Shown here piece after piece: positions 1-14,604 of a stretch of DNA of 14,656 nt (positions within the stretch are counted from its first letter, which is position 1; each line of letters begins with the position of its first letter). The translations under genes and the position numbers were made by a program. The DNA is from a virus. Lineage: Duplodnaviria; Heunggongvirae; Uroviricota; Caudoviricetes. The notes under the pieces are model-generated. The model saw nothing but the letters and a program-made list of their open reading frames with translations. It had not been told where the DNA came from and did no database searches. Where the stretch lies: the IMG/VR virus record IMGVR_UViG_2713896903_000001; one strand, written 5' to 3'.

Positions 1-138
1 GTAAGCGCCTGCGGGTCAATGCCAGTTGCTCCGCAGCCGTGCGTGAGGCCACCGGCCCCACCCGCGTGGATAATGCAACCAGCCCCCGACTGGCAGACAC
101 CGCTGAGCGGGATTATTTCACCCTCAGAGAACGGCTGA
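1..138 (+). CDS. Rz1: Rz1 outer-membrane lipoprotein spanin (o-spanin), 3' partial, nested in the +1 frame of Rz
   Basis: Frame 1 translates to ...CVRPPAPPAWIMQPAPDWQTPLSGIISPSENG*, a proline-rich C-terminus matching lambda Rz1 as remembered; stop TGA at 136..138, wholly inside the Rz reading frame (the classic embedded-gene architecture). Confidence 0.8.
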   Translation, partial: VSACGSMPVAPQPCVRPPAPPAWIMQPAPDWQTPLSGIISPSENG

Positions 139-200
139 TGACAATGCAAAAGCAACTGGAAGGGGCACAGGAATATATCCGTACCCAGTGTATACCGTGA
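1..200 (+). CDS. Rz: Rz inner-membrane spanin (i-spanin), 3' partial
   Basis: Frame starting at position 3 translates to ...PRLADTAERDYFTLRERLMTMQKQLEGAQEYIRTQCIP*, matching the C-terminus of lambda Rz as remembered; stop TGA at 198..200. The 5' end lies outside the window. Confidence 0.85.
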   Translation, partial: KRLRVNASCSAAVREATGPTRVDNATSPRLADTAERDYFTLRERLMTMQKQLEGAQEYIRTQCIP

Positions 201-666
201 TGTTTTGTTATAAAGGTGTTGATGGTTGTGTTAGGGGGGATTTAACAAAAAGCCAGTTCCGGACTTTATAGTGTGCTCAGATCATGGCCAAAAACGATTT
301 CTGTGATAAATATTTTGAATATTATTTACAGGTAAATGACGTGGGTCGCATGAATGAAAATATTACAATAGAGTATTAAGTATATGTTCATATTGTATGG
401 GCTGAGAAGGCAAAACACGGTAATTCCTTATGTTGCTATGATACTTGATTGGCAGAATAGTTATTTGGTCTTGAGTATATAGTCAGCGTTTTTTGTTCAG
501 TAATAGTTCTTTCAGTAAAAAAACAATAAATAGCGTGATTATTTCTGTTTGTTATTTATATTTTTGTTTGTTGTTTTATTGTCTTTCTGTGGAGGGGGGA
601 GTATTGTTCCCTTATTAAGGGCAGGTAAATTTAGAATGGTAATCTGTAGATAATTGGAGGTCACTT

Positions 667-981
667 ATGCTACATGATCACCTGGCTGAATGTCTGGAGA
701 AAAAAGGACTGTACCGGCGAGCGGCTGAACGATGGGCAAAAGTGATGGTACAGCTAAGTGATGATCAGAAAAGAAAAATCGCGGCACAGAAACGAGCAGA
801 GTGTTTGCGTAAGGCGCGCCGGACTTCGGTTGCACCGGTGAATCTGACAGAAATAAAGCAAGCGGTCAACAGACTACATTCTGAGTTGGGAATGGGATTT
901 GAAGAGCGGCGGATATTCCGACGATATAAAGGGACAGGAGAACAGAATACGTCCGGAAACGCGCGGTCAAAAAAATGCTAA
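667..981 (+). CDS. Putative PerC/Pch-family transcriptional regulator (104 aa), prophage accessory (moron) gene
   Basis: ORF-track ORF of 104 aa; GGAGG Shine-Dalgarno at 656..660, 6 nt before the ATG; N-terminal motif LEKKGLYRRAAERW resembles the PerC-family signature as I remember it; basic, small, sits in an AT-rich island between the lysis cassette and cos; followed by a hairpin terminator. Family assignment is from memory, not a search. Confidence 0.5.
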   Translation: MLHDHLAECLEKKGLYRRAAERWAKVMVQLSDDQKRKIAAQKRAECLRKARRTSVAPVNLTEIKQAVNRLHSELGMGFEERRIFRRYKGTGEQNTSGNARSKKC

Positions 982-1017
982 AAAATATCTGAGAAAGTTA
1001 TTGCCTGTTACCATAAT

Positions 1018-1044
1018 AAAAAGCGACTTTAGTAGTCGCTTTTT
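1018..1044 (+). terminator. Rho-independent terminator-like hairpin downstream of the 667..981 ORF
   Basis: Perfect 7-bp stem AGCGACT (1022..1028) / AGTCGCT (1034..1040) with 5-nt loop, followed by TTTT (1041..1044) and preceded by an A-run (1018..1022), so it could act in either direction. Confidence 0.4.
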
Positions 1045-1495
1045 GTGTCATATATACGTCGTTTAAGTAAACCTGTCTGAACAGGTGCTCTGGTCGTGTT
1101 TGTTTTTGTTGGGTACAAATTGAGAATGTTTTTCATTAATTAGTCTTCTTCAGCAGACTTCAATAATCCACGCTGAAAAAATTCCTGAACCTTTCTGACC
1201 AAAAGCGATGTTAATTTGTTCAATCATCTGGTTTGGAAATCGGATGTTGAGGGCTGTTGTTCTGCGGGTTCTGTTCTTTGATGACATAATGTTGCCCCAT
1301 ATTCAGTGTTGCTGGTTTGTATTTTCTGAAGTTGCTTTTACGTTAATTTGATGTGGATCAATTGATGCAATGCCTGCGTCATAATTGATCATTTCTTGTG
1401 GTTAGATTGCGTACACACACGTTCTGATGAGTCATCATGCAGATGATAACTATTCTCATTTTTTGTGGGTCCTTTCCGGCGATCTGACAGGCTAC

Positions 1496-1507
1496 GGGGC
1501 GGAAGGC
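1496..1507. other. cosN-like cohesive-end site (variant 12-mer GGGCGGAAGGCG)
   Basis: Flanks (..GGGTCCTTTCCGGCGATCTGACAGGCTACG | 12-mer | CGCGGATTTTCGCTATTTATGAAAATTTTCCGG..) match the lambda right-end/left-end junction as remembered; the 12-mer left half GGGCGG matches lambda GGGCGGCGACCT but the right half differs at 5 positions. It lies about 190 bp upstream of nu1, as in lambda. Confidence 0.6.
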
Positions 1508-1547
1508 GCGCGGATTTTCGCTATTTATGAAAATTTTCCGGTTTAAG

Positions 1548-1661
1548 GCGTTTCCGTTCTTCTTCTCCGTAACGTCATGTTTTTATTTAAAACCCCCCCT
1601 GAAAAGAAAGGAAACGACAGGTGCTGAAAACGGGCTTTTTGGCCTCTGTCGTTTCCTTTCT
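1548..1661. promoter_or_regulatory. cosB: terminase small-subunit binding sites R3 (1548..1560), R2 (1605..1620), R1 (1646..1661)
   Basis: Three copies of the CGTTTCC(G/T)TTCT element: R3 GCGTTTCCGTTCT; R2 AGAAAGGAAACGACAG and R1 CTGTCGTTTCCTTTCT are exact 16-bp reverse complements of each other. Position between cosN and nu1 matches lambda cosB organisation. Confidence 0.7.
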
Positions 1662-1685
1662 CTGTTTTTGTCCGTGGAATGAACA

Positions 1686-2205
1686 ATGGAAGTCAACAAA
1701 AAGCAGCTGGCTGACATTTTCGGTGCGAGTATCCGTACCATTCAGAACTGGCAGGAGCAGGGAATGCCCGTTCTGCGAGGCGGTGGCAAGGGTAATGAGG
1801 TGCTTTATGACTCTGCCGCCGTCATAAAATGGTATGCCGAAAGGGATGCTGAAATTGAGAACGAAAAGCTGCGCCGGGAGGTTGAAGAACTGCGGCAGGC
1901 CAGCGAGACAGATCTCCTGCCAGGGACTATTGAGTACGAACGCCATCGACTTACGCGTGCGCAGGCCGATGCACAGGAGCTGAAAAATGCCAGAGACTCC
2001 GCTGAAGTGGTGGAAACCGCATTCTGTACTTTCGTGCTGTCGCGGATCGCAGGTGAAATTGCCAGTATTCTCGACGGGATCCCCCTGTCGGTGCAGCGGC
2101 GTTTTCCGGAACTGGAAAACCGACATGTTGATTTCCTGAAACGGGATATCATCAAAGCCATGAACAAAGCAGCCGCACTGGATGAACTGATACCGGGGTT
2201 GCTGA

Positions 2206-2231
<26 letters not shown>
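1686..2231 (+). CDS. nu1: Terminase small subunit gpNu1
   Basis: 181-aa ORF starting MEVNKKQLADIFGASIRTIQNWQEQGMPVLRGGGKGNEV, matching lambda gpNu1 as remembered (N-terminal winged-HTH DNA-binding region); immediately downstream of cosB; 3' end overlaps the start of A. Confidence 0.96.
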
Positions 2232-5912
<3,681 letters not shown>

Positions 5913-11202: not shown

Positions 11203-11625
11203 ATGTTTCTGAAAACCGAATCATTTGAACATAACGGCGTGACCGTCACGCTTTCTGAACTGTCAGCCCTGCAGCGCATTGAGCATCTCGCCCTGATGAA
11301 ACGGCAGGCAGAACAGGCGGAGTCAGACAGTAACCGGAAGTTTACTGTGGAAGACGTCATCAGAACCGGTGCTTTTGTGGTGGCGATGTCCCTGTGGCAT
11401 AACCATCCGAAGAAGACGCAGATGCCGTCCATGAATGAAGCCGTTAAACAGATTGAGCAGGAGGTGCTCACCACCTGGCCCACAGAGGCGATTTCTCATG
11501 CTGAAAACGTGGTGTACCGGCTGTCCGGTATGTATGAGTTTGTGGTGAATGATGCCCCTGAACAGGCAGAGGACGCCGGGCCTGCAGAGCCTGTTTCTGC
11601 GGGAAAGTGTTCGACGGTGAGCTGA
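11203..11625 (+). CDS. G: Tail assembly chaperone gpG
   Basis: 140-aa ORF MFLKTESFEHNGVTVTLSELSALQRIEHLALMKRQAEQAESDSNRKFTVEDVIRTGAFVVAMSLWHNHPKK... matching lambda gpG as remembered; ends ...PVSAGKCSTVS*. Confidence 0.95.
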   Translation: MFLKTESFEHNGVTVTLSELSALQRIEHLALMKRQAEQAESDSNRKFTVEDVIRTGAFVVAMSLWHNHPKKTQMPSMNEAVKQIEQEVLTTWPTEAISHAENVVYRLSGMYEFVVNDAPEQAEDAGPAEPVSAGKCSTVS

Positions 11626-12032
11626 GTTTTGCCCTGAAACTGGCGCGTGAGATGGGGCGACCCGACTGGCGTGCCATGCTTGCCGGGATGTCATCCACGG
11701 AGTATGCCGACTGGCACTGCTTTTACAGTACCCATTATTTTCATGATGTTCTGCTGGATATGCACTTTTCCGGGCTGACGTACACCGTGCTCAGCCTGTT
11801 TTTCAGCGATCCGGATATGCATCCGCTGGATTTCAGTCTGCTGAACCGGCGCGGGGCTGACGAAGAGCCTGAAGATGATGTGCTGATGCAGAAAGCGGCA
11901 GGGCTTGCCGGAGGTGTTCGTTTTGGTCCGGACGGGAATGAAGTTATCCCCGCTTCCCCGGACATGACGGAGGATGACGCAATGCTGATGACAGTATCAG
12001 AAGGGATCGCAGGAGGAGTCCGGTATGGCTGA
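11203..12032 (+). CDS. T: Tail assembly chaperone gpG-T fusion (made by -1 frameshift at 11601..11607; T frame 11607..12032)
   Basis: The T frame has no independent start with a ribosome-binding site and overlaps the G 3' end in the -1 frame, exactly as in lambda, where T is expressed only as the G-T fusion; it sits immediately upstream of the tape-measure gene, the conserved chaperone/tape-measure arrangement in siphophages. Confidence 0.88.
11601..11607 (+). other. Programmed -1 ribosomal frameshift slippery heptamer G_GGA_AAG (G to G-T fusion)
   Basis: GGGAAAG at 11601..11607 lies in the G frame as G GGA AAG, 18 nt before the G stop. After a -1 slip the reading frame continues as VFDGELSFALKLAREMG..., which is the T ORF in the ORF track (11607..12032). 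Confidence 0.9.
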
Positions 12033-14604
12033 ACCGGTAGGCGATCTGGTCGTTGATTTAAGTCTGGATGCAGCCAGATTTGACGAGCAGATGGCCAGAG
12101 TCAGGCGTCATTTTTCCGGTACGGAAAGTGATGCGAAAAAAACAGCGGCAGTTGTTGAGCAGTCGATGAGCCGACAGGCGCTGGCTGCACAGAAAGCGGG
12201 GATTTCCGTCGGGCAGTATAAAGCCGCCATGCGTATGCTGCCTGCGCAGTTCACCGACGTGGCCACGCAGCTTGCAGGCGGGCAGAACCCGTGGCTGATC
12301 CTGCTGCAACAGGGTGGTCAGGTGAAGGACTCTTTCGGCGGTCTGATCCCCATGTTCAGGGGGCTTGCCGGTGCAGTCACCCTGCCGATGGTGGGGCTCA
12401 CTTCGCTGGCAGTTGCCACCGGAGCGCTGGCGTATGCCTGGTATCAGGGGGACTCAACCCTGTCCAGTTTCAATAAAACGCTGGTCCTTTCCGGTAATCA
12501 GGCAGGACTGACGGCAGATCGTATGCTGGTCCTGTCCAGAGCCGGGCAGGCGGCAGGGCTGACGTTTAACCAGACCAGCGAGTCACTCAGCGCACTGGTT
12601 AAGGCGGGAGTAAGCGGTGAGGCTCAGATTGCATCCATCAGCCAGAGTGTGGCGCGTTTTTCCTCCGTATCCGGCGTGGAGGTGGACAAGGTCGCTGAAG
12701 CCTTCGGGAAGCTGACCACTGACCCGACGTCGGGGCTGACGGCGATGGCGCGCCAGTTCCATAACGTGACGGCGGAGCAGATTGCGTATGTTGCTCAGTT
12801 GCAGCGTTCCGGCGATGAAGCCGGGGCATTGCAGGCGGCGAACGAGGCCGCAACGAAAGGGTTTGATGACCAGACCCGCCGCCTGAAAGAGAACATGGGC
12901 ACGCTGGAGACCTGGGCAGACAGGACAGCACGGGCATTTAAATCCATGTGGGATTCGGTGCTGGATATTGGTCGCCCGGACACTGCCCAGGAAATGCTGG
13001 AGAAAGCAGAAAAGGCTTTTGATGAAGCGGACAAGAAATGGCAGTGGTATCAGAGCCGGAGCCACCGGCGTGGTAAAACCTCAGCATTTCTTGCCAATCT
13101 CCGTGGCGCATGGGAGGACAGGGCGAATGCGCAACTTGGTCTTTCAGCCGCCACATTGCAGGCAGATCTTGAAAAGGCCAGTGAGATGGCAGCAAAAGAT
13201 CGTGCTGAGTCTGAGGCATCACGGCTGAAATATACCGAAGAGGCGCAGAAGGCTTACGAACGTCTGCAGACTCCGCTGGAGAAATATACCGCCCGTCAGG
13301 AAGAACTGAACAAGGCACTGAAAGACGGAAAAATCCTGCAGGCAGATTACAACACGCTGATGGCGGCAGCGAAAAAGGATTATGAAGCGACGCTGAAAAA
13401 GCCAAAGCAGTCCGGCGTGAAGGTGTCTGCAGGCGATCGCCAGGAAGACAGTGCTCATGCTGCCCTGCTGACGCTTCAGGCAGAACTCCGGACGCTGGAG
13501 AAGCATGCCGGAGCGAATGAGAAAATCAGCCAGCAGCGCCGGGATTTGTGGAAGGCAGAAAGTCAGTTCGCGGTACTGGAGGAGGCGGCACAACGTCGCC
13601 AGCTGTCCGCACAGGAGAAATCCCTGCTGGCGCATAAAGATGAGACGCTGGAGTACAAACGCCAGCTGGCTGCACTTGGCGATAAGGTCACGTATCAGGA
13701 GCACCTGAACGCGCTGGCGCAGCAGGCGGATAAATTCGCACAGCAACAACGGGCAAAACGGGCAGCCATTGAGGCGAAAAACCGGGGGCTGACTGACCGG
13801 CAGGCAGCGCGGGACGCCACGGAACAGCGCCTGAAGGAACAGTATGGCGATAATCCGCTGGCGCTGAATAACGTCATGTCAGAGCAGAAAAAGACCTGGG
13901 CGGCTGAAGACCAGCTTCGCGGGAGCTGGATGGCAGGCCTGAAGTCCGGCTGGAGCGAGTGGAAAGAGAGTGCCACGGACAGTATGTCGCAGGTTAAAAG
14001 TGCTGCCACGCAGACCTTTGATGGTATTGCACAGAATATGGCGGCGATGCTGACCGGCAGTGAGCAGAACTGGCGCAGCTTCACCCGTTCCGTGCTGTCC
14101 ATGATGACAGAAATTCTGCTTAAGCAGGCAATGGTGGGGATTGTCGGGAGTATCGGCAGCGCCATTGGCGGAGCTGTTGGTGGCGGCGCATCAGCGTCAG
14201 GCGGTACAGCCATTCAGGCTGCTGCGGCGAAATTCCATTTTGCGACTGGAGGTTTTACGGGGACCGGCGGCAAATATGAGCCAGCGGGGATTGTCCACCG
14301 TGGTGAATTTGTCTTCACGAAGGAGGCAACCAGCCGGATTGGCGTGGGGAATCTCTACCGGCTGATGCGCGGCTATGCCACCGGTGGTTATGTCGGTGGC
14401 ACCGGAAGTCCGGCGCAAATGCGGCGTTCAGAGGGTATCAGGTTTGAGCAGAACAACAACGTGGTGATTAACAACGACGGTACGAATGGTCTGCCAGGTC
14501 CACAGATGATGAAGGCGGTGTATGACATGGCCCGCAAGGGTGCCCGTGATGAAATCCAGGCACAGATGCGTGATGGTGGCCTGTTCTCCGGAGGTGGACG
14601 ATGA
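12025..14604 (+). CDS. H: Tail tape-measure protein gpH (859 aa)
   Basis: ORF begins MAEPVGDLVVDLSLDAARFDEQMARVRRHFSGTESDAKKTAAVVEQSMSRQALAAQKAGISVGQYKAAMRMLPAQFTDVATQLAGG... and ends ...KAVYDMARKGARDEIQAQMRDGGLFSGGGR*, matching lambda gpH as remembered at both ends; long alpha-helical, Ala/Gln/Glu-rich middle and a hydrophobic segment near the N-terminus are typical of tape-measure proteins; ATGA overlap with M. Confidence 0.95.
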   Translation: MAEPVGDLVVDLSLDAARFDEQMARVRRHFSGTESDAKKTAAVVEQSMSRQALAAQKAGISVGQYKAAMRMLPAQFTDVATQLAGGQNPWLILLQQGGQVKDSFGGLIPMFRGLAGAVTLPMVGLTSLAVATGALAYAWYQGDSTLSSFNKTLVLSGNQAGLTADRMLVLSRAGQAAGLTFNQTSESLSALVKAGVSGEAQIASISQSVARFSSVSGVEVDKVAEAFGKLTTDPTSGLTAMARQFHNVTAEQIAYVAQLQRSGDEAGALQAANEAATKGFDDQTRRLKENMGTLETWADRTARAFKSMWDSVLDIGRPDTAQEMLEKAEKAFDEADKKWQWYQSRSHRRGKTSAFLANLRGAWEDRANAQLGLSAATLQADLEKASEMAAKDRAESEASRLKYTEEAQKAYERLQTPLEKYTARQEELNKALKDGKILQADYNTLMAAAKKDYEATLKKPKQSGVKVSAGDRQEDSAHAALLTLQAELRTLEKHAGANEKISQQRRDLWKAESQFAVLEEAAQRRQLSAQEKSLLAHKDETLEYKRQLAALGDKVTYQEHLNALAQQADKFAQQQRAKRAAIEAKNRGLTDRQAARDATEQRLKEQYGDNPLALNNVMSEQKKTWAAEDQLRGSWMAGLKSGWSEWKESATDSMSQVKSAATQTFDGIAQNMAAMLTGSEQNWRSFTRSVLSMMTEILLKQAMVGIVGSIGSAIGGAVGGGASASGGTAIQAAAAKFHFATGGFTGTGGKYEPAGIVHRGEFVFTKEATSRIGVGNLYRLMRGYATGGYVGGTGSPAQMRRSEGIRFEQNNNVVINNDGTNGLPGPQMMKAVYDMARKGARDEIQAQMRDGGLFSGGGR

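Follow-up and report, generated by a model that had tools for sequence, protein, structure and literature searches.

A PerC-family gene of the group-1 pch type between Rz and cos in a lambda-like phage sequence

Gene content of the locus

The window analysed here is the whole stretch of 14,656 nucleotides of the virus record IMGVR_UViG_2713896903_000001. At positions 667 to 981, on the + strand, it carries an open reading frame (ORF) of 104 codons that starts with ATG and whose translation begins MLHDHLAECLEKKGLYRRAAERW. On the basis of a match to the Pfam PerC family and of near-identity to PchA, both described below, we call this gene pch, encoding a 104-aa PerC-family regulator of the group-1 (PchA/B/C) type. 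As an earlier note on this DNA had claimed, the 104-aa ORF is preceded by a strong Shine-Dalgarno sequence with 6-nt spacing: GGAGG, read from the sequence at 656 to 660, is followed by the spacer TCACTT (661 to 666) and by the ATG at 667. The same Shine-Dalgarno sequence is present in four of the four pch loci that were aligned.

The gene had also been proposed to encode a member of the PerC family, from a PerC-like motif at the N-terminus, and profile searches bear out both points. The protein gives a full-length match to Pfam PerC (PF06069): residues 1-89 fall on positions 1-89 of a profile of 90, with a score of 144.4 bits for a cut-off of 22.6 and an E-value of 1.3e-42, which is far beyond chance. 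It also matches PHROG 994 (E = 5.6e-44) and further PHROGs labelled 'transcriptional activator'. Among 1.84 billion cluster representatives, searched exhaustively with HMMER, 78 relatives were retrieved, and the further-off relatives of the PerC family are at most 77% identical to the window protein. The alignment that we used for conservation is made of 43 of these 78, distant relatives at 25-75% identity. Its invariant or nearly invariant positions are A7, L10, E11, G14, R17, R18, A19, A20, R22, W23, C46 and G75, and all 12 are kept in the window Pch. Those from L10 to W23 lie within residues 10-23 (LEKKGLYRRAAERW), i.e. the motif noticed earlier, which is the signature block of the family in this alignment. 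NCBIfam has no specific model for the protein and its best matches are noise. They include a sub-threshold match to ANR (AraC negative regulator, Aar-like; NF033650), with 14 bits for a cut-off of 32 and an E-value of 0.033 over residues 7-48. Membership of this family was rejected, the score reflecting at most a faint resemblance between helical hairpins.

The earlier note had placed the gene in a slot between the lysis cassette and cos, and this is where it lies, since Rz ends at 200, cosN begins at about 1497 and Nu1 at 1686. The 3' end of Rz (spanin), the last gene of the lysis cassette, occupies positions 3..200 of the + strand. It is cut by the edge of the window and matches Pfam Phage_lysis (PF03245, E = 1.1e-25) from position 63 to position 125 of the 126 in the profile; its counterpart at matching E. 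coli loci is annotated 'lysis protein'. An AT-rich intergenic or leader region (201..666, + strand, 30-35% GC) separates it from pch. In the composition profile, the 30-35% GC segment extends over about 225-675, whereas the flanking phage genes have 50-62% GC. A low GC content of this kind is typical of acquired cargo cassettes and of H-NS targets.

Downstream of pch, an intrinsic terminator hairpin of 13 bp (1016..1046; arms AAAAAGCGACUUU/AGUAGUCGCUUUUU) begins 35 nt after the stop codon, in agreement with the claim that the gene has its own terminator. Its minimum free energy of -16.4 kcal/mol (z = -4.4) was equalled by 0 of 200 shuffles. A run of five A precedes the hairpin and a run of five T lies on the other side, as its 3' arm. 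The consensus terminator scan missed this hairpin because the T-run is absorbed in the stem. Given these two runs, the terminator could work in both directions, and it probably serves both pch (+) and an ORF that converges on it (-). The latter (1150..1287, - strand) encodes a 45-aa DUF3950 protein, a short relative of YlcI/YnfO (Pfam DUF3950, E = 1.6e-10). It is called at the same position in eight of the eight contigs that carry the exact Pch protein, and it is a second occupant of the cargo slot.

The interval from Rz to cos is a classic cargo position, occupied in lambda by bor. pch has in common with bor and with other morons of this interval the slot itself, autonomous expression signals and a composition unlike that of the neighbouring phage genes. 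However, lambda bor is a lipoprotein gene on the minus strand, whereas pch lies on the strand of the late genes and encodes a regulator.

The cos region (1497..1685, + strand), delimited by alignment with lambda cos, consists of cosN followed by a lambda-like cosB that extends up to the start of Nu1. The 12-nt cosN (about 1497-1508) reads GGGCGGAAGGCG. The window cos aligns with that of lambda, which reads ACAGGTTACG, GGGCGGCGACCT and CGCGGGTTTTCGCTATTTATGAAAATTTTCCGG in succession. The flanks of cosN are nearly identical to those of lambda, and 5 of the 12 cosN bases differ from the lambda GGGCGGCGACCT. Because of these five differences, the cohesive ends of the window phage would be incompatible with those of lambda. 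This divergence stands beside a lambda-like terminase, made of the small subunit Nu1 (1686..2231, + strand; Pfam Phage_Nu1, E = 3e-100) and the large subunit gpA (2206..4131, + strand; Pfam GpA_ATPase and GpA_nuclease). After gpA, the head and tail late operon, with portal, S49 protease, gpD, gpE and tape-measure protein, fills the rest of the window. Two overlapping ORFs (11203..11625 and 11607..12032) precede the tape-measure gene (12025..14604); their arrangement is like that of the lambda G/GT tail-chaperone pair, made by programmed frameshifting, and is ordinary. A scan of the whole window at Rfam gathering thresholds returned no RNA family. HnrS, a prophage sRNA, has recently been described in the late regions of Sakai prophages (PMC13502914).

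Relation to named Pch and PerC proteins and conservation of the locus

Comparison with named PerC and Pch proteins supports the identity that had been proposed. The closest known system is group-1 Pch (PchA, PchB and PchC, or 'PerC1') of EHEC O157:H7 strains Sakai and EDL933. The window Pch and PchA (ECs_1091), encoded by prophage Sp4 of E. coli O157:H7 Sakai, are both 104 aa long and align without gaps, with 99 identical residues out of 104. The five differences between PchA and the window Pch (L6V, I38V, S54P, A56S and I83V) are all conservative and none of them falls on a conserved position of the PerC family; they could in principle alter activity. The window protein is identical at 100 of 104 positions to the PerC-family copy of O157:H7 493/89 and is 100% identical to WP_059222289.1 from E. 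coli 377323_2f. Taken together, group-1 PchA and WP_001302717 show 95-96% identity with it at equal length (104 aa). PchD and PchE (groups 2 and 3) also belong to the PerC family and are also encoded by prophages or prophage-like elements, but by identity the window Pch goes with group 1, unlike them.

PerC is more distant, the copy of EPEC plasmid pMAR7 (NC_010862) showing 48% identity over residues 2-88. PerC of typical EPEC has in common with the window Pch the Pfam family and the invariant N-terminal LE..G.YRRAA.RW block. However, it is shorter, has no basic C-terminal tail, and is plasmid-borne (EAF plasmids pMAR2/pMAR7), being encoded by the third gene of the perABC operon.

The same succession of Rz, AT-rich spacer, pch, terminator, small minus-strand ORF, cos and Nu1/A was found at every related locus examined, namely those of E. 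coli 377323_2f and O157:H7 493/89 and eight contigs obtained by look-up of the exact protein. The Sakai pchA locus aligns with the window DNA from the Rz stop codon through the terminator. Conservation covers the 5' spacer, the Shine-Dalgarno sequence, the start region (first 60 nt of the coding sequence) and, with one change in its loop, the terminator. In Sp4, pchA likewise adjoins lysis genes. The segment that carries pchA and the lysis genes (L003 18365-21375) has the opposite orientation there with respect to the terminase and head genes, with copies of IS629 and ISEc8 on either side; therefore the order Rz, pch, cos seen in the window is rearranged at the reference pchA locus.

Most of the spacer (201..666) is conserved at the Sakai pchA and O157 493/89 loci. 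The exception is one short variable patch near 588-612, in a poorly conserved stretch that spans 553-612. About 60-80 nt upstream of the ATG, the window has a G-rich patch where the O157 pchA loci have a T-rich one. The G-rich run GGAGGGGGGAG...TTCCC is common to the window and E. coli 377323_2f, whose patch has an additional T-rich unit of 19 nt. An exact 46-mer taken from this patch had no match in a collection with one genome per species. Such differences might make the promoter or the leader behave differently from one allele to another. The minus-strand neighbour also differs, since the 45-aa DUF3950 ORF of the window is replaced in O157 by a 74-aa YlcI/YnfO protein.

The exact Pch protein occurs in 485 public contigs, under the name 'PerC family transcriptional regulator [Escherichia]'. 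Among 5426 complete E. coli genomes, 673 carry the pch ORF at a DNA identity of at least 95%, the median copy number in these being three, and ler with the LEE1 promoter is found, as a single copy, in 697 of the 5426; these nearly equal numbers are marginal counts, which say nothing of overlap. The closest prophage backbones are 97-99% identical to the window at the DNA level, none of them being identical; to judge by their accession series, several are probably from Escherichia albertii.

Expression of pch

A scan of positions 1-1750 for sigma-70 consensus sites gave no + strand site upstream of pch; the promoter and 5' UTR are presumably held by 201..666. The consensus scan of the same 1750 positions gave no terminator-like site between Rz and pch. 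Since pch lies on the late strand immediately after Rz, with no such site between them, Q-modified late transcription should read into it.

LEE expression in uninduced EHEC depends on the group-1 pch genes (PMC4764244), which implies that these genes are expressed in the lysogen. Furthermore, SOS or prophage induction enhances the group-1 pch genes (PMC6265319). The earlier note had described the gene as transcribed in the lysogen, independently of late-gene expression. The first half of this statement agrees with the behaviour of uninduced cultures; the independence is only partly right, because group-1 pch genes also rise on SOS induction. The window pch has a ribosome-binding site and a terminator of its own, and its low-GC cassette lies downstream of the late lysis genes, in their orientation; it would therefore be expressed in the lysogen and, at a higher level, through read-through upon prophage induction.

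Over pch -11 to +55, four positions differ from Sakai pchA. Melson and Kendall are said to have described, in 2019, a self-inhibitory SD:anti-SD structure of the pch leader that is relieved by DicF. According to two reviews, translation of pchA is inhibited by this structure and the sRNA DicF opens it under low oxygen (PMC7769764, PMC7873438). The predicted folds of the window leader pair the Shine-Dalgarno sequence or the AUG; the fold of -40 to +60 is no more stable than those of shuffles (z = -1.0). Unconstrained predictions of DicF:pch duplexes were discarded, being long, implausible pairings that differed between the window and Sakai.

Proposed role and alternative readings

The Pch family and gene, the place where the gene lies and what it does have been on record since 2004-2005. 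The window adds one more copy of a virulence regulator that is known and annotated already, at the site where it usually lies. Nothing about it is conceptually new, and public databases list the exact protein with its family correctly named. Its interest lies in what it says about the element: pch marks the prophage as a regulator-carrying lambdoid phage that links phage carriage to LEE type III secretion (EHEC, atypical EPEC, E. albertii), and its presence can help in the annotation and pathotyping of the source genome. Cross-talk of the prophage with virulence loci requires the LEE in the host.

EHEC O157:H7 has five recognised pch genes, and full expression of ler and espA as well as adherence require those of group 1 (pchA/B/C), not pchD or pchE (PMC6265319, PMC4332760). 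Activation of the LEE1 (ler) promoter in trans has been published for PerC (PMC4332760) as well as for PchA/B/C (PMC4332760, PMC4764244). Under many conditions EPEC expresses the LEE even without PerC, but in EHEC pch is indispensable (PMC4764244). Fukui (2016) reported that Pch activates LEE1 only when H-NS, StpA and Hha repress it (PMC4764244). In the same work, pch expression lowered H-NS occupancy at the LEE, and extracts containing PchA, as distinct from purified Pch, excluded H-NS from LEE1 promoter DNA in vitro; contact between Pch and H-NS was not detected, and Pch was found to bind many chromosomal sites besides the LEE (PMC4764244).

Its family, its near-identity to PchA, the anatomy of the gene and its genomic surroundings show the window ORF to be a pch gene. 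We read it as a functional group-1 pch allele (pchA/B/C, PerC1), carried as cargo in the Rz-to-cos slot of the lambdoid prophages of attaching-and-effacing Escherichia and acting, by homology, as an H-NS anti-silencer; judging from the sequence, we give this reading a probability of about 0.93. Its anti-silencing mechanism, its ler target and its expression pattern would be those of published PchA. The most likely mechanism is thus relief of silencing by H-NS, StpA and Hha at the LEE1 (ler) promoter. The protein would associate with AT-rich, H-NS-silenced DNA, above all this promoter, and lower the occupancy of H-NS, StpA and Hha, so that RNA polymerase could start. The Ler then produced would activate the remainder of the LEE type III secretion island, together with effectors encoded outside it. 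Ler itself, a LEE-encoded paralogue of H-NS, is a functional analogue of Pch, being a horizontally acquired H-NS anti-silencer at virulence loci (PMC4764244). However, Ler has a DNA-binding domain of the H-NS type, whereas the model of the window Pch is a four-helix TPR-like bundle, and the two are unrelated in sequence and fold.

This model was obtained with AlphaFold2 from the 43-sequence alignment and has a mean pLDDT of 84.7, with values above 94 at residues 1-50. It contains helices at residues 5-13, 16-29, 33-50 and 60-73, followed from about residue 80 by a basic tail of low confidence. A Foldseek search with the model gave no significant match in the PDB. The predicted fold is a generic TPR-like helical bundle devoid of a recognisable DNA-binding motif, TPR-like denoting here a fold class and not evidence of homology. 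The model agrees with a published remark that Pch has no similarity to known DNA-binding proteins. As the predicted fold lacks such a motif, direct DNA binding by Pch is not obvious from the structure, and fold and remark together may leave a small opening for a mechanism of the adaptor type. PerC and Pch proteins might then be TPR-like adaptors (about 1.5 repeats plus a basic disordered tail) that remodel H-NS complexes via a protein partner, rather than conventional DNA-binding activators. In a weaker form, the window allele, which we infer to reside mostly on E. albertii-like backbones, might have a target range unlike that of PchA. We regard this pair of proposals as speculative and rather improbable.

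Another reading is that the window gene encodes a PerC-family member inactive on the LEE. According to published work, neither PchD nor PchE activates ler, and PchE is a repressor of curli and flagella (PMC6265319, PMC7369912). The window gene might resemble these members of groups 2 and 3, acting on curli or flagella or having no known action. Such a reading finds its ground in the split made in the literature between active group 1 and LEE-inactive groups 2 and 3 (PMC6265319, PMC4332760), which Pfam membership alone does not separate. However, the window Pch is 95-96% identical to group-1 PchA and WP_001302717 and has their length of 104 aa, the DNA that flanks it is that of the pchA locus, and identities drop to 77% or less among further PerC-family relatives. 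We therefore consider inactivity on the LEE very unlikely.

Least probable, in our opinion, is that pch primarily serves the phage, for instance by relieving H-NS silencing of the AT-rich prophage, LEE activation being a by-product: pch does lie in the direction of late transcription with no terminator-like site found from Rz to pch, group-1 pch genes rise on SOS induction (PMC6265319), PHROGs include several phage families of PerC-like 'transcriptional activators' and Pch binds many chromosomal sites beyond the LEE (PMC4764244), but there is no evidence of an effect of Pch on phage development, pch tracks LEE-positive genomes in marginal counts (673 vs 697 of 5426), the slot is a classic position for cargo, as with lambda bor, and the low-GC cassette is unlike the surrounding phage genes in composition.
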